Source: Candidatus Curtissbacteria bacterium (GTDB lineage Bacteria; Patescibacteriota; Microgenomatia; Curtissbacterales; GWA2-41-24). Taken from it: a DNA stretch of 64,000 bases. The first letter of the stretch is position 1. Each line of letters opens with the position of its first letter. Positions 7,431-63,716 of this stretch are shown one piece after another. The stretch is from contig JAUSJC010000010.1 in the NCBI GenBank assembly GCA_030647775.1, positions 72,718 through 136,717 on the forward strand, given 5' to 3'. Below the pieces are notes generated by a model. It did no database searches, was not told the DNA's origin, and worked only from the letters and a program-made list of their open reading frames with translations. Made by a program: the position numbers and the translations under genes.

Positions 7431-7438
7431 TCATCCCG

Positions 7439-7512
7439 AACTGACACTTGTGTCATCCCGAACTTGTTTCGGGATCTATTTTGATTCAGGATCTTTCCGA
7501 CAATTATATATT
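7439..7512. repeat. Palindromic MITE-like element, GTCATCCYGAAC...GTTCRGGATGAC family (hairpin GATCCCGAAACAAGTTCGGGATGAC)
   Basis: Nearly identical copies at 21639-21748 and 63624-63716; related copies at 17803-17858, 19381-19415, 8281-8372, 49161-49258, 52521-52608, 31332-31394, 25245-25309. Confidence 0.85.
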
Positions 7513-8374: not shown

Positions 8375-10717
8375 CTAGTGCCCGGGGCTAGGTGAGGGTG
8401 ATGGCGAAGGTGAAGGCGGCGGCGCGCAAGATCCGCAGAAATTCTGCTTAGAATAAGGATCAACAATTACAAACTCTTCCCGCTCTTCGGCGTTTGGCGC
8501 GCCAGCCGCAACAATTTTGTTCGTTACTTTATCTACCCAAACTTTGGCTCGCACAGCAGTCGTTGTTGTCGGTTGGGTTCCGGTCAGGAAATATTCAAAA
8601 CGGCTTGGACATCCGCCGGTAACCGGGCCGCCCGTAAAAGTGCAAATTTGCGCTCCGACAACGCCGGAAGGTACCCTTAATGCTTCATTAACCTTATCTT
8701 TCAAAACAGATTTCATAATATCATTCCAAATCGGCGCGGCACCGGTTATTCCGGATGCCAGGTATTGGCTCATCGGGTGGTTATCGTTATTACCAACCCA
8801 CGTAACTACCAGAAAGCTTGGCGTGTAGCCGATTGTCCAGTTATCACGCTTGTCATCTGTCGTTCCGGTTTTAACGGCCACCGTTTTACCCGGAATTGTC
8901 AAACCGCTGAATGGCCCGAAGGCTGCCGACCTTGCGCCGTTATCCGAAAGTATTGAGGAGATTAAAAACGAAACTTCGCGCGAAAGGACTCTCTTGCCGG
9001 CCTTTGGCTTAAACTCTTCTAGAACTCGGCCATTGGAATCTTCAACTTTTAAAATCGGGGTTAAGTCTTGCCGTACGCCGTCATTGGCAAAAACCCCAAA
9101 GGCCGTTGCCATTTCTGTCATCTTTACTTCACCGCCGCCTAGTGTCAGTGAAAGTCCGTAGCGCGAGGGGTCAGTAAACGTTGTAATCCCCATTTCTCTT
9201 GCCATTTTGATCATATCCTCGACTCCCGAAATTGCCAGCACCTTAACGGCTGGAATGTTATACGAATTGGCAAGGGCAAACCGTACCTGTACCGGGCCGT
9301 GGTATTGCCCGTCGTAATTGACCGGAGTGTAGGGTTTTGTGCCGGCCACGCCAAATGTCGTCGATACATCCATAATCACCGTTGCCGGCGTTATCAACTT
9401 TTTGGAAAGTGCTGTTGCATAATTAATTGGCTTTATTGAAGAACCCGGTTGACGACTGGCAATCGTTACGTTCACATTTCCATCTATCTTCTCGTCAAAA
9501 AAATCTTTCGAACCGACCATTGCCAAAATCTCTCCGGTTGCCGGCCTTGTCACCAGTGCCGCGCCATTAGAAACATCCAGATATTTTACCGCCTCGATAT
9601 TTTTGGCAACCGCCGCTTCGGCTGAAGCCTCGATACCCAAATCTAAAGTTGTCGTTACCTTGAGTCCTCCGTGGGTTGCCACCGCGTCGCCATACTTTTG
9701 TGAAAGCCAGTCTCTTACATACATCACAAAATGCGGCGCTTTTATATCGACCGCCGAGCGTCTAAATTTCAACTCCTCGCCAGCCGCTTTTTCCTCATCC
9801 GCCTTCGTTATATAGTGCTCCTCATACATTCGCGCGAGGACAAACTTTTGCCTTTCAAGCGCCCGCTTTGGGTTTTGCCCGAAAGGTGAATAATAAGTCG
9901 GCGCCGCCGGAAGCCCCGCAAGAAGCGCCGATTCGGCCAAATCCAAATCCTTCAGATCTTTACCAAAATACTGTTGGGCCGCCGCCGATACTCCCCAGGC
10001 CGTTCCGCCATAAGGCACCTGGTTTAAGTACATCTCCAAAATCTTGTCCTTGGAAAACGCTGTTTCTACCCTAAATGCCAAATAAAGTTCCTTAATTTTT
10101 CTGGAAACTGTCCGCTCCGGTGAAAGGAACACACTCTTAACAAGTTGTTGGGTAATTGTCGATCCGCCTTGTACATTCCCCTGAAAAAGCGTTGCCCGCG
10201 CCGCGCGTATTATGCCGTAAACATCAAACCCGCGGTGTTTGTAGAAATCCTTGTCCTCCGTGGCAATCGTCGCCTTCTTTAAATTTTCGGGAACCGCCGA
10301 AAGCGAAACGATTGTCCGGTTCTGGTCCTCGTAAACGTTAAATAAAATCTTACCGTTCCTATCAAAGATTCTTGTCGTTTGCGGAATTTGTCGTGTTTCC
10401 AACTGTTTCGGACTTGGCAAATCACGTGTCAAAAACCAAACACCAAAGACAAGCAGTGCGATGGTCAAAATCCCGACTTTAAAGCTGCGGTCCTTGTAAA
10501 TAAGCGGATGGTGGCCGATCCGGACGAATATTTGCGCTTTCTTGGAAAGGTCGATGTGTACCTTTTCAAAAGCCAGCTCAATACTGTGGGAAATTGACCT
10601 GAAAATCCAAATGGTAACGTCTCCAAAAAAGCTGACCAGGAGAATAAACCAGGTCAGAAAAGAAATGACCGTACCAAAGATTAAGGAGATTAACTTGGCA
10701 AGGGGATTAAAATTCAT
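8375..10717 (-). CDS. Class A penicillin-binding protein (PBP1A; transglycosylase + transpeptidase)
   Basis: EDKDFYKHRGFD / TITQQLVK glycosyltransferase motifs; SSIKP (SxxK), KTGTT transpeptidase motifs; C-terminal (PS)5 repeat. Confidence 0.9.
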   Translation of the reverse strand: MNFNPLAKLISLIFGTVISFLTWFILLVSFFGDVTIWIFRSISHSIELAFEKVHIDLSKKAQIFVRIGHHPLIYKDRSFKVGILTIALLVFGVWFLTRDLPSPKQLETRQIPQTTRIFDRNGKILFNVYEDQNRTIVSLSAVPENLKKATIATEDKDFYKHRGFDVYGIIRAARATLFQGNVQGGSTITQQLVKSVFLSPERTVSRKIKELYLAFRVETAFSKDKILEMYLNQVPYGGTAWGVSAAAQQYFGKDLKDLDLAESALLAGLPAAPTYYSPFGQNPKRALERQKFVLARMYEEHYITKADEEKAAGEELKFRRSAVDIKAPHFVMYVRDWLSQKYGDAVATHGGLKVTTTLDLGIEASAEAAVAKNIEAVKYLDVSNGAALVTRPATGEILAMVGSKDFFDEKIDGNVNVTIASRQPGSSIKPINYATALSKKLITPATVIMDVSTTFGVAGTKPYTPVNYDGQYHGPVQVRFALANSYNIPAVKVLAISGVEDMIKMAREMGITTFTDPSRYGLSLTLGGGEVKMTEMATAFGVFANDGVRQDLTPILKVEDSNGRVLEEFKPKAGKRVLSREVSFLISSILSDNGARSAAFGPFSGLTIPGKTVAVKTGTTDDKRDNWTIGYTPSFLVVTWVGNNDNHPMSQYLASGITGAAPIWNDIMKSVLKDKVNEALRVPSGVVGAQICTFTGGPVTGGCPSRFEYFLTGTQPTTTTAVRAKVWVDKVTNKIVAAGAPNAEEREEFVIVDPYSKQNFCGSCAPPPSPSPSPSPSPGH

Positions 10718-17744: not shown

Positions 17745-17858
17745 CCGCCTGTCATTGCGAGGAGTTCTGCATTGCAGAACGACGAAGCAATCTCTTCATA
17801 ACCGTCATTCCGAACTTGTTTCGGAATCTAGATCCTGAAATAAATTCAGGATGACAGT
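17745..17858. repeat. Two adjacent palindromic elements (GTCATTGCGAGGAGTTCTGCATTGCAGAACGACGAAGCAATCTC and GTCATTCCGAACTTGTTTCGGAATCTAGATCCTGAAATAAATTCAGGATGAC)
   Basis: Direct reading. Confidence 0.85.
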
Positions 17859-17881
17859 AACAGTTGTATAATCAATTCACA

Positions 17882-19243: not shown

Positions 19244-19418
19244 AGATTGCTTCGCTTAGCTCGCAATGACATAATTAGTTAGTTCTCGACTCGTTCTGCA
19301 ATGCAGAACTCGCTCGAACAATATAGTTCGACCTTGCCTGCCCGTCAAAACTTTAGTGTCGTCGGGTGGAGAACTTCCAATTGACTAGATTCTGAAACAA
19401 GTTCAGAATGACAGGAAT

Positions 19419-21643: not shown

Positions 21644-21748
21644 CCTGAACTGACACCTGTGTCATCCCGAACTCGTTTCGGGATCTGTCTTGTTTCAGGA
21701 TCTTTTTTGAGATGCTGAACTGAATTCAGCATGACATGGTACTGTTGA
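21639..21748. repeat. Palindromic MITE-like element (near-identical to 7439-7512) plus GATGCTGAACTGAATTCAGCATGAC hairpin
   Basis: Direct reading; abuts femAB start codon. Confidence 0.85.
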
Positions 21749-25626: not shown

Positions 25627-26208
25627 ATGGTAGGAGTCGGTGGAGAACCAATACCCGGAGCAAACGGAGATCAGGCCGAACCAGGAAATGAGGCTCCAGT
25701 CGCTTCAGAAAGAACCGAAGAACAGCAAAAGGTCGAAGCCCTGTTTGATAAAGTAAGTGAGGTAAATCAACAACTGGATGGAGGACTTGCGTATGATATT
25801 CAGGTAAGCGATGGCACATCTCTTCTTCTATTTAGGGCGGTTGGGAGCCAGGCTGGACACCTGTATGGTGCGCATTCAAATGAAGGCCCAGTTTGTCTTA
25901 CAGATACGGCAAAACATAAAAATGATTTCTTGGGTCCTGGTGCTTGGTATGCTCGCCTGCCTGAGGGTTTCAAAACAGGTGAGAAAAAGTTAGACCCCAC
26001 AGACTACTTTCCAGTTTCAGGTGACCATGAAGAGTGGCAGAAAGCGTTTACCAGTTCAAGAGACTCCATACTTAGAGATCGAGTGGAAATAGAAAGAATT
26101 AGAGCTAAAAGAACTAAGAGCTTAGACCAAGCGCTTGATATTGTCTCCAAGCCTGTTGATATTAACGCACCTCCCCCTGCAGTCGGTCCTGCTCCTCAAG
26201 GCAGTTAG
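25627..26208 (+). CDS. Hypothetical soluble protein (compositionally atypical)
   Basis: 193 aa, no TM, G/E/P-rich, no family recognised. Confidence 0.3.
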   Translation: MVGVGGEPIPGANGDQAEPGNEAPVASERTEEQQKVEALFDKVSEVNQQLDGGLAYDIQVSDGTSLLLFRAVGSQAGHLYGAHSNEGPVCLTDTAKHKNDFLGPGAWYARLPEGFKTGEKKLDPTDYFPVSGDHEEWQKAFTSSRDSILRDRVEIERIRAKRTKSLDQALDIVSKPVDINAPPPAVGPAPQGS

Positions 26209-26240
26209 TTAGTTCTCGACAAGCTCGAACAATAATTTTA

Positions 26241-26275
26241 GGCTAGTTTACTAGCCCCATGGCACTGTATATAAT
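26241..26275 (+). promoter_or_regulatory. Consensus-like sigma70 promoter module CTAGTTTACTAG-CCCATGGCACTGTA-TATAAT (palindrome over -35)
   Basis: -35 TTTACT, 17-nt spacer, -10 TATAAT at 26270-26275; ATG of trxA at 26283 (leaderless). Confidence 0.6.
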
Positions 26276-26282
26276 TACAGCT

Positions 26283-26540
26283 ATGGTCAAACTTTTGGAC
26301 TTCTGGGCTACCTGGTGCGGCCCTTGCAAATTTATGGAGCCAATTGTCGAAGAACTGGAAAAAGAACTAGCAGGTAAAGTCGAAATCGAAAAGATCAACG
26401 TCGACGAAAGACAGGAAATGGCCGCCAAATACGGCGTAATGTCTATCCCGACTTATGTTGTTATAAAAGACGACAAAGAAGTTGCAAGAATAATTGGCGC
26501 TACTTCCAAAGATAATCTCACTAAGGCGTTGGGAATTTAA
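26283..26540 (+). CDS. trxA: Thioredoxin
   Basis: WCGPCK active site; start MVKLLDFWATWCGPCK (ORF-track start 26259 lies inside the promoter). Confidence 0.85.
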   Translation: MVKLLDFWATWCGPCKFMEPIVEELEKELAGKVEIEKINVDERQEMAAKYGVMSIPTYVVIKDDKEVARIIGATSKDNLTKALGI

Positions 26541-30689: not shown

Positions 30690-32585
30690 ATGAACATCCG
30701 AAACTTTGCTCTAATTGCCCATATTGACCATGGCAAATCAACTCTTGCCGATCGTATTATGGAAGCCTGCGGCGCAGTTGGTACTTCTCACCAAGCCCAG
30801 CTTTTGGATAGTCTGGAGCTGGAGCGCGAGCACGGCATTACCATCAAACTCAAGGCGATCCGATTAGTTTACAAACCGGAAAATATTCTTCGAGCGAGCG
30901 AAGCGAGTCGAGAAGTTTCCACTGAAAATATTAATAGTTCTAAAGGTAAGTTCTCGATAAACTCGAACAATAATGACGCATTCATCTTGAACTTACTTGA
31001 TACTCCCGGCCATGTCGATTTTTCTTACGAGGTTTCCCGTTCGCTGGCCTCTGTCGAAGGCGCGATCCTAATTGTTGATGCTACTCAAGGCGTCCAGGCC
31101 CAAACGCTTTCCAATTTCACCCTCGCCCTCGATGCTAACCTCACCCTAATTCCCGTCATCAATAAGATTGATTCACCCCAAGCCGAGGTTGAAAAAACCC
31201 AGGAAGAGCTGAAAAACCTTGGTTTTTCACAAGCGGAAATAATCAAAGTTTCTGCCAAAACAGGCGAAGGAGTGGATCATCTTCTCGAACAAATCGTCAG
31301 CCGCATCCCACCGCCCACAAACTTCTCCGCACGTCATTCTGAACTCGTTTCAGAATCTAAAGACAAGATCCCGAATCAAGTTCGGGATGACAAGTTGAGA
31401 GCCCTCATTTTCGATTCCAGTCTAGATCCCTACAAAGGCGTCATCGCGACAGTCCGCTTATTTGGCGGAGGCCTAAAAGTAGGGGACCAGATAAAATTTT
31501 TGGCAACCGGCGCGCAAGCAGAGGTATTGCAAATCGGCTACCTAACTCCGGTCGTCAAATATGTCAATGAAATTAAATCGGGTGAAGTCGGCTTTATCGT
31601 TACCAATCTTAAGGACTTATTCAAAGTCGAAGTCGGGGATACCATCACCAGTCCCAAGGATCCGGCCAAACCGCTTCTCGGTTATAAGCATGCCAAACCG
31701 GTTGTTTTCCTTTCCTTTTATCCAACCGATGTCGGCGATTTTCCAAAATTAAAAGAAGGCCTGGAAAAATTAAAGCTAAACGATGCGGCGCTTTCCTTTT
31801 CCCCGGAAACTTCCATCTCCCTGGGCCAGGGCCTTCGCGTCGGCTTCCTCGGCTTACTCCACGCTCAAATTACCCAGGAGCGTTTGGAGCGCGAACATAA
31901 TCTGGATATTATTGCCGTTTCGCCTTCTGTCAATTTCGAAGTTGACGGCAAGCTTATCAATAAACCGTCGGAATTTGATCCGGCCGCCCAAAACGTCAAA
32001 GAGCCTTATGCCAAAGTAACCATTTTTGCCCCTCAAAAATATTTCGGCACCGTCTCCAATCTTGTTCACGACAAAAGAGGGACTCTCGGCAACTCCGAAA
32101 ACATCGGAAATCTTTTGAAAATCGAATGCGAAATTCCGCTCTTAGAACTTCTAATTGGTTTTTACGACCAATTAAAGACGCAAACTTCCGGTTACGGATC
32201 GCTCGATTTTGAACTGTCGGAGTATAAACCGGCAAAACTGGCCAAACTCGATATTCTGGTCAATCACGAACCGATAGAAGCCCTAACCCAGATTGTTCCG
32301 TACCAAAGGGCTGAAGAAATTGGCCGCAAATTTGTGGAAAAACTAAAAGATGCCATCCCGCGCCAGCAAATCCCAGTTCCAATCCAGGCGGCCATCGGCG
32401 GCAAAATTATCGCCCGCGAAACAATCGCCTCCTTTAGAAAAGACGTTACTGCTAAACTCTACGGCGGCGATGTCACGCGCAAGATGAAGCTTTTGCAAAA
32501 GCAAAAGAAGGGGAAGAAACGAATGAGAAGATTTGGAAGTGTCGATATTCCACAAGAAGCTTTCCTGGCTGTCCTTAAAGTATAA
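30690..32585 (+). CDS. lepA: Elongation factor 4 (LepA) carrying two in-frame repeat-element insertions
   Basis: IAHIDHGKSTL, DTPGHVDF, NKID, C-terminal LepA-specific domain; 631 aa vs ~600 typical. Confidence 0.9.
   Translation: MNIRNFALIAHIDHGKSTLADRIMEACGAVGTSHQAQLLDSLELEREHGITIKLKAIRLVYKPENILRASEASREVSTENINSSKGKFSINSNNNDAFILNLLDTPGHVDFSYEVSRSLASVEGAILIVDATQGVQAQTLSNFTLALDANLTLIPVINKIDSPQAEVEKTQEELKNLGFSQAEIIKVSAKTGEGVDHLLEQIVSRIPPPTNFSARHSELVSESKDKIPNQVRDDKLRALIFDSSLDPYKGVIATVRLFGGGLKVGDQIKFLATGAQAEVLQIGYLTPVVKYVNEIKSGEVGFIVTNLKDLFKVEVGDTITSPKDPAKPLLGYKHAKPVVFLSFYPTDVGDFPKLKEGLEKLKLNDAALSFSPETSISLGQGLRVGFLGLLHAQITQERLEREHNLDIIAVSPSVNFEVDGKLINKPSEFDPAAQNVKEPYAKVTIFAPQKYFGTVSNLVHDKRGTLGNSENIGNLLKIECEIPLLELLIGFYDQLKTQTSGYGSLDFELSEYKPAKLAKLDILVNHEPIEALTQIVPYQRAEEIGRKFVEKLKDAIPRQQIPVPIQAAIGGKIIARETIASFRKDVTAKLYGGDVTRKMKLLQKQKKGKKRMRRFGSVDIPQEAFLAVLKV
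30888..30977. repeat. MITE-like element (TTCGAGCGAG...GTTCTCGATAAACTCGAACAATAATGAC) inserted in frame in lepA G domain
   Basis: Encodes ~ILRASEASREVSTENINSSKGKFSINSNNN between conserved KAIRLVYKP and LNLLDTPGH. Confidence 0.8.
31332..31394. repeat. Palindromic element CGTCATTCTGAACTCGTTTCAGAATC...CCGAATCAAGTTCGGGATGAC inserted in frame in lepA
   Basis: Encodes SARHSELVSESKDKIPNQVRDD in loop after PPP motif. Confidence 0.8.
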
Positions 32586-34229: not shown

Positions 34230-34266
34230 TTGACAACTTTTAGCACTCGGTGTATATTACTGCTAA
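34230..34266 (+). promoter_or_regulatory. hrcA promoter (TTGACA-17-TATATT) overlapped by CIRCE-like inverted repeat TTAGCACTC-N9-TACTGCTAA
   Basis: CIRCE consensus TTAGCACTC-N9-GAGTGCTAA; 15/18 match; directly upstream of hrcA. Confidence 0.55.
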
Positions 34267-34328: not shown

Positions 34329-35048
34329 ATGGACCTCACCGAACGCCAGAAAAAATTACTCCGCTCAATAATTGAAAAGTATATCGAGACGGCCGAACCA
34401 ATCGGTTCCGAGACTGTCGAGAAAGAGGCCGGGCTTGGAGTTTCGCCCGCAACCATCCGAAACGAAATGGTCAGGCTAACCGCTTTAGGCTACGTTCGCC
34501 AGCCTTACACCTCGGCCGGCCGCATTCCAACTTCCATGGGCATGAAGTTTTTTGTCGACCAGCTAATGGAAGAAAAAGCCCTTTCGCTGAAAGATGAAGT
34601 TGCTATCAAAGAAGAAATGAACCAGGGTGACCAGCGTTTTGAAAGGCATTTAAAGCACGCCGCCCAGGTTTTGGCGCAGCAGACAAAATCACTGGCCATT
34701 GCCAGTGATGAAGAGGGTGACATTTATGCTTCAGGTATGGCCAATATTTTGGATATGCCCGAATTTTATGATATCGATATCACCAAAACCGTCCTTTCCA
34801 TGCTCGATAAAGTCGAACTTCTAAACCAGGTTTTTGCCATGCTTCTTCCCCAGGACCAAATAAAAATCTTTTTCGGTGAAGAGCTTGGGGTTCCCTTTTT
34901 GGAACCATGCGGCTTTGTAATTGTCCGCTACGAAGCGCCAAGCCATAGAGGGGTCCTTGGGGTCATCGGCCCGTCGCGCCTAAACTATCCGGTGGTTATT
35001 CCGACCATGAAATACTTTGCCCATCTGCTCGGCGAATTTTCCAAATAA
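34329..35048 (+). CDS. hrcA: Heat-inducible transcription repressor HrcA (short form)
   Basis: MDLTERQKKLLRSIIEKYIETAEPIGSETV... winged-helix N-terminus typical of HrcA. Confidence 0.8.
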   Translation: MDLTERQKKLLRSIIEKYIETAEPIGSETVEKEAGLGVSPATIRNEMVRLTALGYVRQPYTSAGRIPTSMGMKFFVDQLMEEKALSLKDEVAIKEEMNQGDQRFERHLKHAAQVLAQQTKSLAIASDEEGDIYASGMANILDMPEFYDIDITKTVLSMLDKVELLNQVFAMLLPQDQIKIFFGEELGVPFLEPCGFVIVRYEAPSHRGVLGVIGPSRLNYPVVIPTMKYFAHLLGEFSK

Positions 35049-38793: not shown

Positions 38794-39285
38794 ATGACCG
38801 TAAAACTTGATTATATCCGCACTGCTGAACGGTGGCAGAGATATGGGGAAGAGTATTCAAAAGAGGGAAGAGAACATTGGAGCGACTTTATAAAGGCCTG
38901 TCTAAGTGTAACCACCTTTTTAATCGGTTTTAATGGTATTTGGCTTCAGATTAGAAAAGCACCACTCACGGACTTGGATAAAGCCTTATTTTTTTCAGCG
39001 TTTATTTACTTATGCCTTTCTTTAATATTCGGGCTTTGGGCAATTTTGGAAATGAATGCTTTTATGAATAAAATGGGTCGGTATTACGAAGAGAAATCAG
39101 AAGCCTTGTTCAAATTTATGCTCGATACTAGTACCGATAGAGGCGAGTCGTATCCTAATCACCTGCCCAAGAAAAACAACAAAGAATTCGAATTAATACC
39201 CTGGCCCTTTAAATATCAATTAGTCTGTTTGGGATTTGGGATCATTGCATCTACGTCACTGGGAATGCTATTTATTTTTAAGTAA
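38794..39285 (+). CDS. Hypothetical membrane protein
   Basis: 163 aa, 3-4 TM helices. Confidence 0.4.
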   Translation: MTVKLDYIRTAERWQRYGEEYSKEGREHWSDFIKACLSVTTFLIGFNGIWLQIRKAPLTDLDKALFFSAFIYLCLSLIFGLWAILEMNAFMNKMGRYYEEKSEALFKFMLDTSTDRGESYPNHLPKKNNKEFELIPWPFKYQLVCLGFGIIASTSLGMLFIFK

Positions 39286-39329
39286 CCCCAATTTTCCCGC
39301 CCGAATTTTTTTGGCTTTGATATAATTGC
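39286..39329 (+). promoter_or_regulatory. Cassette boundary/promoter motif copy 1 (degenerate): CCCCAATTTTCCCGCCCGAATTTTTTTGGCTTTGATATAAT
   Basis: Extended -10 TGATATAAT 39318-39326, 6 nt before ATG 39333. Confidence 0.6.
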
Positions 39330-39332
39330 TTG

Positions 39333-39659
39333 ATGCAAACAAAAATTATTTTGACAACCTCTACACTTATCATCGTATCTTTGCTTGTCGGTGCATTTTA
39401 TTGGTTTGTATCGAGACCTCAAGAGATTAGAAAAAGATGTTACAGTGAAATGTCCAGTTTAAGTGTTGATATTACTAAGCCCCCTAACGAAGCTTCCAGC
39501 TCTGTTTTTACTAGTACTCTCCCGCCACTAAGTAATGTAGGTCAACAAATACTTGAAGGTAAAAAACTAATTACCGATAAAGATAAAAATAATTATTACA
39601 GATCTTGCCTCGTAAAAAATGGACTCAAGCCCGAATCGCTATATGTGAATGTAAATTGA
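39333..39659 (+). CDS. Small membrane-anchored hypothetical protein (cassette 1)
   Basis: ~108 aa, N-terminal TM. Confidence 0.4.
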   Translation: MQTKIILTTSTLIIVSLLVGAFYWFVSRPQEIRKRCYSEMSSLSVDITKPPNEASSSVFTSTLPPLSNVGQQILEGKKLITDKDKNNYYRSCLVKNGLKPESLYVNVN

Positions 39660-39694
39660 GATTCCAATAAGTAAGCACAATTAGAATTTTAGTT

Positions 39695-39720
39695 CCCCAA
39701 ATTCCCCGCTCGATTTTGCT
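39695..39720 (+). promoter_or_regulatory. Cassette boundary motif copy 2 (CCCCAAATTCCCCGCTCGATTTTGCT; -10 part degenerate)
   Basis: Direct reading. Confidence 0.6.
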
Positions 39721-39742
39721 TTGAGTTGTCCCAAAAAGAAGC

Positions 39743-40378
39743 TTAACTGACCAATTCTCTTAGGTCTGGTACTTCTAAAACTTTTCCAAGTTCCCACTCA
39801 TTGCCATTAAAATCAAATCTCGGTATTGAATAAACGCTTCTTTGTCTTGATATTCCCCTAATAATTGGGCCCAAGCGTTGCAAGCTATTAAGCCTATCTT
39901 CGTTTCGTTTTCTGATTTGACCTTCTATTCCAGTATGTGCCGCTCCAATTACCGTTACAAGGTGGTTCAGACCTTCTACGTTTTTCATCAGCCATTCCTC
40001 TTTATGCGCGGTGATAGTTTCCCTGAGTCTTGAAGTTGGTCGAAAGGGCAAAAGGTAAATTTCTGGGAAAGCAATAAAACTCCTAATGCCTAAGTCTGCA
40101 TGATATACAGGGATTCGATACCTTTCCGCGTAATCAAGAACGCTAGAAAATTGCGGAAGAAATAGTCTGCCTAGCCCACTAAAATATTCTGGAAGCTCCT
40201 GTCCATATCTATCGGATGGCCACTCTATAACAAACGCGTCTAAATCGGGGGGAACAAAATCTAAATTTGTCCTTCGGTTGTGAGCACCATACACGATTGT
40301 GTAGACCCCTTCGGGCTTTTCGATTCGAGTAACTTTACTAGGGTCTTCTTGTCTTAAACGTTCATTCATAGCAAAAGT
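39743..40378 (-). CDS. TraB/GumN-like family protein (tentative; cassette 2, inverted)
   Basis: VYGAHN and VIGAAHTGIEG GxxH-type motifs; ORF-track N-terminus (to 40549) is antisense of neighbouring EamA TM region and boundary motif, so start placed at MNERLRQ. Confidence 0.35.
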   Translation of the reverse strand, partial: TFAMNERLRQEDPSKVTRIEKPEGVYTIVYGAHNRRTNLDFVPPDLDAFVIEWPSDRYGQELPEYFSGLGRLFLPQFSSVLDYAERYRIPVYHADLGIRSFIAFPEIYLLPFRPTSRLRETITAHKEEWLMKNVEGLNHLVTVIGAAHTGIEGQIRKRNEDRLNSLQRLGPIIRGISRQRSVYSIPRFDFNGNEWELGKVLEVPDLRELVS

Positions 40379-40417
40379 GGAGTATAACAGGAATAGTGAG
40401 CCAATTTCAACTATAGG

Positions 40418-40456
40418 CCCAAATTCCCCGCTCGATTTCCGTAACTTCTGATATAC
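40418..40456 (+). promoter_or_regulatory. Cassette boundary/promoter motif copy 3 (CCCAAATTCCCCGCTCGATTTCC...TGATATACT)
   Basis: -10-like TGATATACT 40448-40456, ATG 40464. Confidence 0.6.
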
Positions 40457-40463
40457 TTTTCTC

Positions 40464-41312
40464 ATGTCTTGGATCGTATTGGCACTAGCTAGCGTTATAT
40501 TTTTCTCTATTTCCGCGCTGCTCCAAAAAGTCTTGATGAAAAACGACAAAAGCGACCCGTACGCCTATTCCATAATGTTTCAATTCTTAATCTGGGCTGT
40601 GGCGGCAACCGTTGTTCTTTGGACTGGCTTTGTTATGCCCCCCATTAAGACATACCCACTCAATTTCTTGTTTTCGTCTGTTATGTACGGCCTTGGAACC
40701 ATTTGTGCTTTTAAGGCGCTTAAATATATAGAAGCTTCGGAATTCACAATAATAAGCTCTGTAAAAGCTATCGTTACGATTATTTCTGCTGTTTTAATTT
40801 TGGGTGAAGTTTTTGATTACAAAAAGGCACTTGGTACCGCATTGGTTTTAATTTCTGCATATTTAGTTACCCAAAAATCCAGAAAAATAAAGTTCAACAA
40901 AGGCACCCTTTATGCTTTAGGGACTGCGCTGACGTATGGACTCGCTATTACAAACGACACATTTCTACTAAAATATTCTGAAGTATTTTCGTATCTGACA
41001 GTTGGTAATCTAATCACAGTACTTTTTGTGATTGCAATAAAACCCACAGCGGTTAAAAATTTAAACCATTTTTTCGATCTCGCGATTCTTTCCAAAATGC
41101 TTATACTCGGCATCTTATATTCTTTTGGAGCAGTCGCCTTTTATTTGGCAATTCAAAGTGGTGCAGCAGCTTCTCAAATCTCGCCGATTTTGCAGACCTC
41201 TGTAATTGTCACGGTTCTACTCGCAGCCATATTTTTGGGCGAAAGAGACAATTTGGTTAAAAAAATCGCAAGCGCTATATTGGTAACAATTGGAGTAATA
41301 CTAATTAAGTAG
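40464..41312 (+). CDS. EamA/DMT-superfamily transporter (cassette 3)
   Basis: 282 aa, 10 TM, duplicated EamA domains. Confidence 0.7.
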   Translation: MSWIVLALASVIFFSISALLQKVLMKNDKSDPYAYSIMFQFLIWAVAATVVLWTGFVMPPIKTYPLNFLFSSVMYGLGTICAFKALKYIEASEFTIISSVKAIVTIISAVLILGEVFDYKKALGTALVLISAYLVTQKSRKIKFNKGTLYALGTALTYGLAITNDTFLLKYSEVFSYLTVGNLITVLFVIAIKPTAVKNLNHFFDLAILSKMLILGILYSFGAVAFYLAIQSGAAASQISPILQTSVIVTVLLAAIFLGERDNLVKKIASAILVTIGVILIK

Positions 41313-41313
41313 A

Positions 41314-41349
41314 CCCAAATTCCCCGCTCGATTTTTGCCCTGATATAAT
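41314..41349 (+). promoter_or_regulatory. Cassette boundary/promoter motif copy 4 (CCCAAATTCCCCGCTCGATTTTTGCCCTGATATAAT)
   Basis: Extended -10 TGATATAAT 41341-41349; ATG 41356 (leaderless). Confidence 0.65.
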
Positions 41350-41355
41350 CACCTG

Positions 41356-41931
41356 ATGACAAAACTTATTTTTATCACGCATCCCGCCGTCGATGTTGAC
41401 CCCACGATTCCTATTAATCAGTGGCATGTTTCCAAAGATGGACAAAAGCAAATTGACAACCTTTTGACATTGCCCTTTTGGTCGGAAGTAGATGTGATTT
41501 ACTCAAGCCAAGAAGGGAAAGCGCTGAATACCGCGAATAAGATCAAAAGCCATTTTGACCATCTCAAATCTCCGGCACCAGAAGGAACGTTTGATCTGCA
41601 CGAAATAGACAGAAGCGCAACCGGAGTTCTTCCAAAAGACGTATACGATAAAGCGATCGAAGAATTTTACCTGTACCCCAATAAAAGTTATAAAGGATGG
41701 GAAACAGCAAACGCGGCAAAAGAGAGGATTTTTAAAGTTGTAAGCCAAATTATTGATGATAACCCCAATAAAACTGTTGCCATCGTTGGTCATGGGGCCA
41801 CCGGAACACTCTTAGCCTGCCAGATTAAAAAAATCGAACCCTCTTTTGCCGAGGATCCGCACACAAACGGCTGCATTATGGTTTACGATTGGGACGAAAA
41901 GACAATACTTTCGCCCTGGACCAAGTATTAA
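41356..41931 (+). CDS. Histidine-phosphatase superfamily (PGM-like) protein (cassette 4)
   Basis: LIFITHPAV (RHG-position His) and VAIVGHGATG second His motif. Confidence 0.5.
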   Translation: MTKLIFITHPAVDVDPTIPINQWHVSKDGQKQIDNLLTLPFWSEVDVIYSSQEGKALNTANKIKSHFDHLKSPAPEGTFDLHEIDRSATGVLPKDVYDKAIEEFYLYPNKSYKGWETANAAKERIFKVVSQIIDDNPNKTVAIVGHGATGTLLACQIKKIEPSFAEDPHTNGCIMVYDWDEKTILSPWTKY

Positions 41932-41976
41932 AATTCCCCGCTCGATTTTTGGTCCCTTGATGAATTAATGTATAAT
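41931..41976 (+). promoter_or_regulatory. Cassette boundary/promoter motif copy 5 (AAATTCCCCGCTCGATTTTTGGTCCCTTGATGAATTAATGTATAAT)
   Basis: TATAAT 41971-41976 followed by AGGAAAGGA SD-like and ATG 41996. Confidence 0.6.
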
Positions 41977-41995
41977 TTATAGGAAAGGATTTAAT

Positions 41996-42187
41996 ATGTC
42001 TGCAATTGACCTTCGGAAAATCTTAAAAGAGAACAAATCTGGGTGGGTAGCTTTAACTCAAGATAACAAAAAGAAAATAGCGCAAGGTAAAACCCTCAGC
42101 GAAGTACTTAAAAAAGCCAAAGAAAAGGGAATCGAAAAGCCCAGTGTGTTTAAAGTTCCTTCTCTGGGCACTTACTATGTCGGTTAA
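41996..42187 (+). CDS. Small lysine-rich protein (DUF5678-like/antitoxin-like, tentative), translationally coupled to downstream protease (cassette 5)
   Basis: 63 aa; stop overlaps next start (TAATG). Confidence 0.4.
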   Translation: MSAIDLRKILKENKSGWVALTQDNKKKIAQGKTLSEVLKKAKEKGIEKPSVFKVPSLGTYYVG

Positions 42188-42642
42188 TGGATTTCAGCTA
42201 CACAATTGTCACTGACTGGCCTAATCATCAAGTTCGTCAACGCTATCTCCCTTGGATAAATATCGGAATTAAAAAACCTGGCAAAGAAGACACAATTTGG
42301 CCATTGGGACTTGTAGATTCCGGTGCGGAAATAACTATTTTAGATAGAGAAATCGGAGAAGAACTGGGATTTAACTTTAAAAAAGCGGCGAGAGACATAA
42401 TCACCGGTTTTGGTGGGGGTAAAGTAGAAGTGTTTCTTCTGCAAGCGGAATTCGTCATCGATGATAATAGTGGGAAGGAACCTATTATATATAAAGATTT
42501 GTTAGGATTTACAAAAGGCCAATTCCCTCAAACCCATCCACAGCAAACTGCCATATTTGGAACCATAGGTTTATTTAGAAATGCTCAAGTTAATTTTCGG
42601 TATCCGACTAATATTCATATAGAACAATTCAAAGCGAAATAA
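42187..42642 (+). CDS. Retropepsin-like (clan AA) aspartic protease
   Basis: GLVDSGAEITILD contains D-S-G-A catalytic motif; 151 aa size typical of bacterial/archaeal retropepsin-like proteins. Confidence 0.6.
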   Translation: MDFSYTIVTDWPNHQVRQRYLPWINIGIKKPGKEDTIWPLGLVDSGAEITILDREIGEELGFNFKKAARDIITGFGGGKVEVFLLQAEFVIDDNSGKEPIIYKDLLGFTKGQFPQTHPQQTAIFGTIGLFRNAQVNFRYPTNIHIEQFKAK

Positions 42643-42645
42643 TTT

Positions 42646-42689
42646 CCCCCAAATTCCCCGCTCGCGATATTTGCTTTTGATATAATCTC
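42646..42689 (+). promoter_or_regulatory. Cassette boundary/promoter motif copy 6 (CCCCCAAATTCCCCGCTCGCGATATTTGCTTTTGATATAAT)
   Basis: Extended -10 TGATATAAT 42680-42688; ATG 42693. Confidence 0.65.
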
Positions 42690-42692
42690 TTC

Positions 42693-52496: not shown

Positions 52497-52644
52497 AGTA
52501 TCCTTCGAGCGAAACAAGAAGTAATGTCATCCTGAACTAGATTCAGGATCTAGATTCCGAAAGATACAGGGCCATGCGACCTAAAGGTCTAAAGTTCGGA
52601 ATGACAATGAATGTAAGTTCTCGTTAACACTCGAACAATATAAA
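52497..52644. repeat. Nested repeat: CTTCGAGCGAAACAAGAAG + GTCATCCTGAACTAGATTCAGGATC...GTTCGGAATGAC + GTTCTCGTTAACACTCGAACAATA
   Basis: TIR family element containing palindromic family element. Confidence 0.8.
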
Positions 52645-57520: not shown

Positions 57521-57599
57521 CTGATATTAGTCCAGTTTACTGGACGCATGGTGCTGTATTAGATTTGCTTTTGCAAATCGCATGGCGCTGTATATAATT
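57521..57599 (+). promoter_or_regulatory. alaS promoter region: conserved module CCAGTTTACTGG-ACGCATGGTGCTGTATTAGA, inserted hairpin GATTTGCTTTTGCAAATC, then GCATGGCGCTGTATATAAT
   Basis: -10 TATAAT 57593-57598, ATG 57605; hairpin creates TTGCAA at -35 spacing. Confidence 0.55.
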
Positions 57600-57604
57600 G
57601 CTTC

Positions 57605-59443
57605 ATGACCTCGCAAGAACTTCGCCAGAAGTATCTTAAGTTTTTTGAAGACAAGGGACACAAAATTATTCCCTCGGCATCTCTTGTGCCCAAAGAAGAT
57701 GTGGAGCTTGCCGGGACCCAGCGCGTTTTATTTACGACAGCCGGTATGCATCCACTGGTTCCCTATCTACTTGGCACGTCTCACCCCGAAGGCAAGCGCT
57801 TGGTAAACGTTCAAAAATGTCTTAGAACCGACGATATCGACCAAGTCGGGGACAGCGTCCATAACACATTTTTCGAAATGCTTGGCAACTGGTCGCTTGG
57901 CGACTACGGTAAAGTTGAGGCCATTTCCTGGTCATACGATTTCCTAATCAACCATTTAAAACTCGATGCCAAACGCCTTTATATTTCTGTTTTTGCCGGG
58001 GACGACGATGCGCCATTTGACCAAGAGTCTTTCGATATCTGGAGAAAACTCGGTATGCCCGAAGATCACATATTTCGCTACGGCAAAAAAGATAATTGGT
58101 GGGGTCCCGTTGGCCCGAGCGGTCCATGCGGCCCGGACACCGAAATGTTCTACGATATCAAACCTAACGATCCCGGATCGTTAGACCCGTCAAGCAATTC
58201 CCAACGCTTCGTCGAAATCTGGAACGACGTTTTTATGGAGTACGACAAACAAAAAGATGGATCGTTCAAACCTCTTGCTCAACGAAACGTCGACACCGGC
58301 ATGGGCTTGGAACGAATGCTTGCAGTTTTACAAAACGCGCCTTCAAGCTTAGGCCCGCAGTTCTGCATTGCAGAACGAGGACCGCATGCCATGGCCCTTG
58401 TAAGGGGCACTGTATACGAAACCGATGTTTTTCTTCCTCTTATGAAACAGATAGAGGAATTATCGGCAAACTTCCAGGATAAATCCGCCCGCATTGTAGC
58501 CGACCATCTGCGCGCATCGGTTTTCCTCATATCAGACGGAGTCATTCCGTCAAACGTCGAACGCGGCTATATCCTGCGCCGCCTGATCCGCCGCCTGATC
58601 CGCCACGCATCGCTTCTTAAAATCGAGCAGGATTTCTTAGAAGATTTAACAAAAGTTGTCGTTAAAACCTATAGCGATTTTTATCCAAAGCTAGAAGAGT
58701 TTCAGGAATCAATCATCACTGAACTTAAAAAAGAGGAAGCAAAGTTTAAAAAAGCCTTAGCCCAAGGCATCCATGAGTTTGAAAAGATAGGCGGCGACAT
58801 TTCCGGCCGCGACGCTTTTAATCTTTATCAAAACTACGGTTTCCCCATAGAGTTAACTGTCGAAATGGCCCTTGAATCAAATAAAGGAGTTGACGTCCCG
58901 GGTTTTGAAAAAGAATTCAAGGCCCATCAGGATTTATCCCGAAAAGCGGGGGAGAAAACCAAAGGGGGAATGACTACTCAAAGCGACCGCACCGCCAAGC
59001 TCCATACGGCAACCCATCTTCTGCACCAGGCACTCCGTGATGTATTGGGAGACCATGCTCACCAAACCGGTTCACACATTACGGACGTTAGGCTGCGTTT
59101 TGATTTCACTCACGACGCCAAAATGACGGAAGACCAGATTAAAAAAGTTGAAGATTTGGTCAACCAAAAAATAAAAGATAATCTGCCGGTCGAGAAAGTT
59201 ACCATGCCGAAAGCCGCGGCCGACGAAATCGGTGCCATTGGCCTGTTTGACGATAAATACGGCGATCTGGTCAACATTTACTTTATGGGTGCAGGTAATC
59301 CCAAAGATGCCTATTCCAAAGAATTTTGCGGCGGTCCGCACGCCGACTCGACAGGATCGCTTGGAAAGTTTAAGATAATTAAAGAGGAATCAGCAGGTTC
59401 TGGCGTGCGCCGAATCTATGCTACAATTAGTAATCCGAATTGA
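57605..59443 (+). CDS. alaS: Alanyl-tRNA synthetase (short form: catalytic + editing domains)
   Basis: Class II motifs, QKCLRTDDID...FFEMLGNWSLGDY, editing HTATHLLH / CGGPH; in-frame insertion at 58352-58386. Confidence 0.85.
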   Translation: MTSQELRQKYLKFFEDKGHKIIPSASLVPKEDVELAGTQRVLFTTAGMHPLVPYLLGTSHPEGKRLVNVQKCLRTDDIDQVGDSVHNTFFEMLGNWSLGDYGKVEAISWSYDFLINHLKLDAKRLYISVFAGDDDAPFDQESFDIWRKLGMPEDHIFRYGKKDNWWGPVGPSGPCGPDTEMFYDIKPNDPGSLDPSSNSQRFVEIWNDVFMEYDKQKDGSFKPLAQRNVDTGMGLERMLAVLQNAPSSLGPQFCIAERGPHAMALVRGTVYETDVFLPLMKQIEELSANFQDKSARIVADHLRASVFLISDGVIPSNVERGYILRRLIRRLIRHASLLKIEQDFLEDLTKVVVKTYSDFYPKLEEFQESIITELKKEEAKFKKALAQGIHEFEKIGGDISGRDAFNLYQNYGFPIELTVEMALESNKGVDVPGFEKEFKAHQDLSRKAGEKTKGGMTTQSDRTAKLHTATHLLHQALRDVLGDHAHQTGSHITDVRLRFDFTHDAKMTEDQIKKVEDLVNQKIKDNLPVEKVTMPKAAADEIGAIGLFDDKYGDLVNIYFMGAGNPKDAYSKEFCGGPHADSTGSLGKFKIIKEESAGSGVRRIYATISNPN

Positions 59444-60231: not shown

Positions 60232-60277
60232 CTGATATTAGACCCAGTTTACTGGGCGCATGGCACTGTATATAATT
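60232..60277 (+). promoter_or_regulatory. Conserved promoter module CTGATATTAGACCCAGTTTACTGGGCGCATGGCACTGTATATAAT
   Basis: -35 TTTACT 60248-60253, 17-nt spacer, -10 TATAAT 60271-60276; ATG 60288. Confidence 0.6.
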
Positions 60278-63633: not shown

Positions 63634-63716
63634 ACTGGCACTTGTGTCATCCTGAACTTGTTTCAGGATCCGTGTTGTTTCAGGATCTAGATGCCGAAAC
63701 AAGTTCGGCATGACAC
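63624..63716. repeat. Palindromic MITE-like element (near-identical to 7439-7512 and 21639-21710) plus GATGCCGAAACAAGTTCGGCATGAC hairpin
   Basis: Direct reading. Confidence 0.85.

Follow-up and report, generated by a model that had tools for sequence, protein, structure and literature searches.

This study indicates that the promoter-like module shared by trxA, alaS and the gene of a 730-aa protein probably arose from a hairpin-carrying repeat of about 33 nt, inserted just 5' of the -10 boxes of unrelated genes in one narrow lineage of Curtissbacteria. The DNA analyzed, hereafter called the window, is a 64,000-nt stretch of a Candidatus Curtissbacteria MAG, and all coordinates of the repeat unit refer to it. 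The boundaries of the unit, its presence or absence among relatives, its tandem and nested copies, the covariation in its hairpin and the geometry of the promoters were all observed.

In the explanation that we favor, the module would be a composite of a resident leaderless promoter and a small, REP-like dispersed unit of 29–35 nt. The resident promoter, which stands alone in relatives, would be an extended -10 box like CTGATATAAT with the ATG 6–11 nt further on. The unit would follow a simple grammar, namely an unpaired TTAG tag, a hairpin that keeps nothing but its pairing and, in most copies, an AGT-TT-ACT core, and a 15-nt tail. The CTGTAT end of the unit, which resembles the displaced CTGAT(AT), would restore the first T of the -10 hexamer, and the hairpin loop and 3' arm would set a -35-like hexamer (TTTACT or TTGCAA) 16–17 bp upstream, resulting in hybrid -35/-10 promoters.

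The repeat unit and its copies in the window

The alignment of all copies defined a discrete unit of 29–35 nt, consisting of TTAG, a short hairpin of 4–8 bp whose closing pair joins the tag's G to the tail's C, and the tail CGCATGG-YR-CTGTAT, whose 15 nt are almost invariant between copies. At promoters, the unit adjoins the resident -10 box (ATAAT) of predicted leaderless genes. Four of the five window units are located at promoters, each in the orientation of its gene, and the remaining one is off-promoter (Table 1). A covariance model built on this alignment and searched with filters off returned the five units in the window, with nothing further below E = 0.4, and only known sites over 153 kb of relatives. 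The 18-mer CATGGYRCTGTATATAAT has three exact occurrences in the window against 0.07 expected; with up to three mismatches allowed it gives four matches in total, a number reached by none of 100 shuffles. An Rfam search across the whole window matched no family.

Table 1. Positions of the repeat units, their promoters and other features in the 64,000-nt window
Feature	Position	Strand	Sequence elements	Context	Score
Class A PBP orthologue	8375-10717	-	TATACT + 7 nt + ATG only	empty site
193-aa ORF	25627-26208			no Pfam family; between a uvrD-like gene and trxA
Unit 1	26238-26270	+	TTAG, hairpin GGCTAGT-TT-ACTAGCC, tail CCCATGGCACTGTAT	5' of trxA	49.8 bits
trxA -10 box	26270-26275	+		ATG 26283
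Thioredoxin (Pfam)	26283-26540			followed by TIM and a LytR-family gene
Unit 5	52564-52592	-	TTAG, hairpin ACCT-TT-AGGT, tail CGCATGGCCCTGTAT	off-promoter	33.5 bits
Unit 2 (distal alaS)	57527-57559	+	TTAG, hairpin GTCCAGT-TT-ACTGGAC, tail CGCATGGTGCTGTAT		51.3 bits
Unit 3 (proximal alaS)	57560-57593	+	(T)TAG, hairpin GATTTGC-TTTT-GCAAATC, tail CGCATGGCGCTGTAT		29.8 bits
alaS -10 box	57593-57598	+	TATAAT	ATG 57605	promoter scan 10/12
AlaRS (Pfam)	57605-59443
Unit 4	60238-60271	+	TTAG, hairpin (a)CCCAGT-TT-ACTGGG(c), tail CGCATGGCACTGTAT		51.6 bits
730-aa gene -10 box	60271-60276	+	TATAAT	ATG 60288	promoter scan 10/12
REP-like family	7433-7475, 17807-17860, 19389-19409, 21664-21684, 31336-31388, 52525-52602, 63649-63711		(C)TAG-ATYCYGAA-N5-TTCRGRAT-GAC
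Second promoter-like module	39270-42692		CCCAAATTCCCCGCTCGATTTTTG..(C/T)TGATATAAT, then 3-6 nt, start codon	ORFs starting 39330, 40464, 41356, 41996, 42693
Third repeat	upstream of 7616, 12980, 18698, 26283 (26212-26235), 35755, 52645		GTTCTCGAC-N4-5-GCTCGAACAATA	intergenic
CIRCE-like inverted repeat	~34240-34266		TTAGCACTC-N9-TACTGCTAA	upstream of hrcA (34329-35048), grpE, dnaK, dnaJ

The sequence-only reading had described one contiguous promoter module at three sites. This description holds for 60232–60276 (CTGATATTAGACCCAGTTTACTGGGCGCATGGCACTGTATATAAT) and for 26241–26275 (GGCTAGTTTACTAGCCCCATGGCACTGTATATAAT), but not for alaS, where the stretch 57521–57559 has the palindrome and the tail and then runs into TAGAT instead of TATAAT. 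Unit 2 is followed there by TAGATTTGCTTTTGCAAAT-CGCATGGCGCTGTAT, and the TATAAT belongs to the tandem unit 3, which, together with the minus-strand unit 5, had been missed. The element CCAGTTTACTGG, taken for a palindrome, is really an inverted repeat of at most 7 bp (G-N-C-Y-A-G-T / A-C-T-R-G-N-C) around an asymmetric TT, and CTGATATTAG is missing from the trxA copy. The gene names given for thioredoxin and AlaRS were borne out by Pfam, and the 730-aa protein, whose gene is followed by sortase and RuvX genes, matched no Pfam family.

The CTGTAT that ends unit 2 leads straight into unit 3, which is specific to the window, as alaS of the relative L011 does not have it; unit 2 therefore borders unit 3 rather than a -10 box in the window, and in L011 the same unit directly adjoins the alaS ATAAT. 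Unit 4 adjoins the -10 box of the 730-aa gene, and the ATAATTAGGTTCGCGA-ATG stretch of this gene is conserved in L010, a relative without the unit. Unit 5 is inverted and nested in the loop of a ATTCCGAA...TTCGGAAT repeat hairpin; it is followed by CTTTCG and not by a -10 box, and there is no downstream gene on the minus strand. The intergenic spacer that holds unit 5 is 149 nt long in the window, 4 nt in L011 and 46 nt in L006.

Filled and empty promoters among relatives

The range of the unit is narrow. The motif scan of species-representative genomes matched one Curtissbacteria MAG (L001), with the unit 5' of trxA, and three metagenome contigs (L003, L004 and L005) also carry it; further relatives (L006–L012 and L027–L029) were gathered via exact-protein look-ups. 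In the relative GCA_016187105.1, which was scanned whole, the strict pattern matched once only. A match in the genome of a Chthonomonadaceae member (L002) was regarded as chance, since about 0.3 chance matches were expected and it has no hairpin. Viral contigs scanned with TTAG-N10-20-CGCATGGNNCTGTAT gave 14 matches, all of them hairpin-less and coding-like, and these were likewise rated as chance. The 730-aa protein has about 95 homologues, essentially all in Curtissbacteria.

Close relatives carry either the unit or a bare extended -10 box CTGATATAAT at the orthologous promoters of four genes (those of trxA, alaS, the 730-aa protein and a class A PBP), and the bare box in empty relatives lies at the same distance from the ATG as in filled sites. 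The 730-aa promoter is filled in the window and L011, has a degenerate unit in L009 (CAG tag, CACATGG and a 5-nt deletion), and is empty in L010 (CTGCTGATATAATTAGGTTCGCGA-ATG), L006 (TCTGATATATAATTGGG...) and L008. The trxA promoter is filled in the window, L001, L027 (CACCGTAT) and P0129, and empty in L028 (GGGGCTGATATATAAT) and L029 (CTGATATAAT). For alaS, the window has two units and L011 one, and L006, L007, L008 and L010 are empty. The PBP promoter of L003 carries an intact and a degenerate unit in tandem, and the window orthologue, with 84% protein identity, is empty. Without exception, the empty sites consist of an extended -10 box of the form CTGATATA(TA)AT.

The comparison of filled with empty sites places the unit between CTGAT(AT) and ATAAT. 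Filled sites have the TG of the former box shifted out to the left flank, and the unit brings CTGTA together with the first T of the hexamer. These comparisons permit a target duplication of 0–2 bp only, as ATAT repeats at the junctions leave no definable duplication beyond 2 bp. The left flanks of the units end in ...GAT, ...ATAT, ...GTAT or ...CTT.

In the neighbour-joining tree of the 730-aa protein, filled and empty states were interleaved and the outgroups were empty; the unit is therefore a derived feature of a narrow subclade. By parsimony, this tree favors neither gains nor losses, and an empty site could have arisen by precise deletion between CTGAT(AT) and CTGTAT. Irrespective of later losses, the unit came to occupy a non-promoter site and at least four different promoters.

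Several other differences were seen near these sites. Since uvrD and trxA are directly divergent in L027, L028 and L029, the 193-aa gene and its flanking repeat in the window represent a lineage-specific insertion, owing to which the window trxA unit has no CTGAT left flank. At the empty promoters of L010 (3255–3300), L028 and L029, short unrelated hairpins lie directly 5' of the extended -10 box (e.g., CCGATattacATCGG, CCTAGCCaatgaGGCTGGG and GAGTTTaccAAACTC), and the 7-mer AGTTTAC is common to GAGTTTaccAAACTC and the unit; in L010, a CTGATATAT direct repeat lies on both sides of CCGGACCAGTGAATCTGGTAG. L012 (14638–15624) and L011, which are near-identical contigs of one organism, differ downstream of yceG, where L012 has an rve-family integrase or IS transposase and L011 runs on into rpoB.

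The promoter bias, with four of five copies co-oriented with the gene, is not predicted by pure selfish spread. A stronger form of our explanation would be an active "promoter-homing" mini-element that specifically targets the extended -10 box (CTGAT^ATAAT) in front of leaderless genes, uses its CTGTAT end to restore this box and adds a -35; its tail may bind a host factor, and housekeeping expression in a reduced CPR genome would be rewired. We consider this form rather doubtful.

An explanation without dedicated mobility would be that a strong promoter cassette was copied by short-patch illegitimate recombination or gene conversion via the CTGATAT...ATAAT microhomology and kept by selection for expression. 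In 6 of about 10 copies, the left flank (CTGATAT) does resemble the CTGTAT of the right end, all promoter copies share one orientation and keep exact register with the -10 box, and the window ORFs include no transposase. However, unit 5 lies in a hairpin loop with neither CTGAT/ATAAT homology nor a promoter, and the microhomologies amount to a mere 5–7 bp. Units 3 and 5, moreover, have hairpins unlike those of the other copies and yet identical tails, which suggests that ends and structure define the family and that its members are not copies of one promoter. Cassette copying is thus unlikely, and slightly more so than the homing form.

Hairpin variation and promoter geometry

In the AGTTTACT-type copies (n = 9), 98% of the hairpin cells are paired. 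Double changes were found at two of the seven pairs, with C:G, U:A and G:C at one position and C:G and U:A at another, and L009 has a further compensated variant, ACACAGT/ACTGTGT. The covariation score of the hairpin was reached by none of 500 shuffles, and slid controls collapsed. Symmetric double changes along with the replacement of the hairpin are, as far as these alignments can tell, the mark of a structure-defined element, unlike equivalent protein half-sites. Template-switch correction of quasi-palindromes could also yield compensatory changes without selection.

These data bear directly on the proposal of the sequence-only reading that a dimeric regulator uses the inverted repeat over the -35 as its operator, with trxA, alaS and the 730-aa envelope gene as a small regulon. 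Several features would suit an operator: with its centre some 33 bp 5' of the point where transcription is expected to begin, the repeat has a repressor-like position; the promoter-proximal copies with such a hairpin all have the same AGT-TT-ACT core; a comparison of the window with L011 shows stronger conservation in the unit than in its flanks; and RNA polymerase contacts alone leave the 15-nt tail unexplained. Against this, the arms vary by symmetric compensatory substitutions, which are not expected for two equivalent half-sites, and the unit nearest alaS has an unrelated hairpin in place of the inverted repeat, the palindrome being displaced there by 34 bp. The compensatory changes and the unrelated hairpin therefore disfavor a sequence-specific operator. 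Furthermore, membership is not conserved among the closest relatives, whose trxA, alaS and 730-aa promoters can do without the unit and retain the same -10 box and ATG, and a PBP gene has the unit in a relative and not in the window. One copy is inverted at a non-promoter site, and no gene for a candidate DNA-binding protein adjoins any copy of the unit. A repeat at non-promoter sites, which the sequence-only reading had named as counter-evidence, was largely what we found, although the repeat is short and only one of its five window copies is off-promoter. Taken together, an operator of this kind is improbable, even a little more so than cassette copying.

The tail is conserved across species beyond what is expected of dead insertions; an enzyme or a host factor, perhaps a regulator, would still read it. 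If there is a regulator, it would bind the tail and not the variable "palindrome".

The reading as a promoter is reasonable at the 730-aa gene, where the -35-like TTTACT (60248–60253), a 17-nt spacer and TATAAT scored 10/12 in the promoter scan (60248–60276); the unit has a consensus -10 box and a -35 hexamer with 4/6 at 17 bp. The hairpin of unit 3 gives either TTGCAA (57571, 16-nt spacer) or TTTGCA (57570, 17-nt spacer), and TTGCAA with its 16-nt spacer and TATAAT also scored 10/12. Three of the five top-scoring (10/12) sites in the scan of 52–64 kb lie in units, namely 60248–60276 and the two overlapping alaS registers. The close spacing of the ATG 3' of the -10 box was confirmed, at 11 nt for the 730-aa gene, 6 nt for alaS and 7 nt for trxA.

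A TATAAT (at least 5/6) ending 4–12 nt 5' of the start codon was found at 18 of 62 window genes, against 2.2 expected at random positions. Many of these boxes are preceded by TGn, and a Shine-Dalgarno-like motif is present at only 7 genes. As judged from these motifs, leaderless extended -10 promoters are the norm in this genome. Because the hairpin sets a -35-like hexamer 16–17 bp from the -10 box, the filled sites read as good sigma-70 promoters, and this promoter reading is plausible.

Other identities for the sequence were considered and rejected. For a sigma-54 promoter, TGGCAC is there, but the GC at the -12 position is missing on inspection. A LexA-like box (CTGT-N8-ACAG) occurs in the window trxA copy only, and not in L001, L027 or other units, and was rated a coincidence. 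A likeness to a dif/Xer site (GCGCAT...TGTATA) fails, by inspection, on spacing and has no inverted arms.

A leader peptide or N-terminal extension starting at the ATG within CGCATGG was also rejected as an annotation artefact, as this ATG is out of frame at the window alaS and 730-aa gene, and empty orthologues do not have the extension. The frame of this ATG matches that of the gene in 6 of 9 copies, which follows from a modal distance of 7 nt (or 10 nt) from the -10 box to the gene's own ATG. ORF and gene callers took the ATG of the unit as a start codon at 26259 in the window, 7441 in L011 and 3906 in L003, and spurious "MALYII..." extensions (P0100, P0129) are present on thioredoxin (96 aa vs. 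85–87 aa), AlaRS and PBP in public annotations. The ATG within the unit can thus mislead gene callers.

The least probable explanation, to which we give very little credence, is that the hairpin acts in RNA as a terminator or 3'-end stabilizer of the upstream gene, making a terminator-promoter insulator cassette: covariation maintains the hairpin and the alaS and 730-aa units lie 20–30 nt past the stop codon of a co-directional upstream gene in the window, but the hairpin is not followed by a U-tract, its stems have low stability (-2 to -6.5 kcal/mol as DNA), which also counts against the insertion explanation, the terminator scan makes no call, and in L027 and L003 there is no transcript to terminate because the upstream gene is divergent.

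Other repeats, mobility and comparison with known systems

The genome also contains a moderately abundant REP-like family, often as inverted doublets (GTC-hairpin-CTAG-hairpin-GAC) whose stems vary by compensation between copies, and this family and the unit have the TAG-plus-hairpin design in common. According to the insertion explanation, the unit may have been copied to new sites by a mobility mechanism, most likely single-strand HUH/RAYT-like processing of TAG-tagged hairpins, as would also apply to the REP-like family. This mechanism can only be inferred, since no transposase or HUH domain, and no RAYT gene, was found among all window ORFs. The unit may raise or change transcription, and its promoter-adjacent copies may persist through target preference or selection.

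Three further sequence features of the window were recorded. The second promoter-like module precedes five consecutive genes, and those with a Pfam match are unrelated (an EamA transporter, a His-phosphatase, DUF5678 and an alpha/beta hydrolase); its conserved upstream block forms no hairpin, and as a shared regulatory site it could be more promising than the hairpin unit. The third repeat lies just 5' of gene starts or of other repeats. The CIRCE-like repeat is a conventional operator and a useful contrast to the variable hairpin of the unit.

If the insertion explanation is true, promoter strength in an ultra-small, uncultivated CPR bacterium would be altered by a tiny repeat slotting into leaderless -10 boxes, a compact natural case of promoter turnover by insertion in a lineage with hardly studied transcription signals. 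The finding opens no long-standing question. It would serve as a warning that near-identical upstream sequences in such genomes need not mean regulons.

Several known systems resemble the unit in part. Insertion sequences with an outward-facing -35 make hybrid promoters with a resident -10 box. The unit is similar in that the insert supplies a -35-like hexamer 16–17 bp from the resident -10 box, giving a better sigma-70 promoter; in contrast to insertion sequences, it is about 33 nt long and non-coding, and its insertion point is inside the -10 box, the first base of which it restores, rather than 5' of the box.

The reuse of promoter sequences 5' of unrelated genes is an established concept, known as "putative mobile promoters" (PMC3575422). 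As in mobile promoters, Correia elements and promoter-carrying MITEs, near-identical non-coding DNA is found 5' of unrelated genes, and the promoter arises at the junction of element and target. The ends of the unit (TTAG... and ...CTGTAT) are, however, not inverted repeats as in MITEs and Correia elements, and there is no demonstrable TA duplication. Correia elements are about 100–155 bp long. The unit is far shorter than these and falls under the 50-nt similarity criterion of putative mobile promoters (PMC3575422).

The IS200/IS605 family and its miniature derivatives share with the unit a hairpin instead of terminal inverted repeats and the lack of a clear target duplication. In a similar manner, the unit sits 3' of a short T-ending motif (CTGAT, TGTAT or AACTT), and one insertion lies in a hairpin loop. 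Unlike IS200/IS605 elements, which have a hairpin at each end and need TnpA, the unit has one hairpin and a loose target motif, with no TnpA among the window ORFs.

REPs are palindromes of 20–40 bp with an unpaired GTAG or CGTC tag, and GTAG-tagged REPs have been hypothesized to be mobilized by RAYT transposases (PMC3733652, PMC8266576). The unit resembles GTAG-tagged REPs in the small size range, the unpaired tetranucleotide tag at the 5' foot of the hairpin, with one mismatch between TTAG and GTAG, and the compensatory variation of the stem; in REP-like fashion, it also co-exists with a second TAG-tagged hairpin family in inverted doublets. On the other hand, REPs are high-copy, mostly located downstream of genes and often paired, whereas the 64 kb contain five copies of the unit, of which four precede genes and none forms inverted pairs. 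The apparently low copy number, with the single strict-pattern match in GCA_016187105.1, is unlike classical REPs and counts against a REP-like repeat. Also unlike REPs, the unit is in register with a -10 box, has a 15-nt unpaired, conserved 3' tail and is accompanied by no RAYT gene among the window ORFs. Based on these comparisons, the unit would be best described as a lineage-specific REP-like mini-insertion forming hybrid promoters at leaderless genes.
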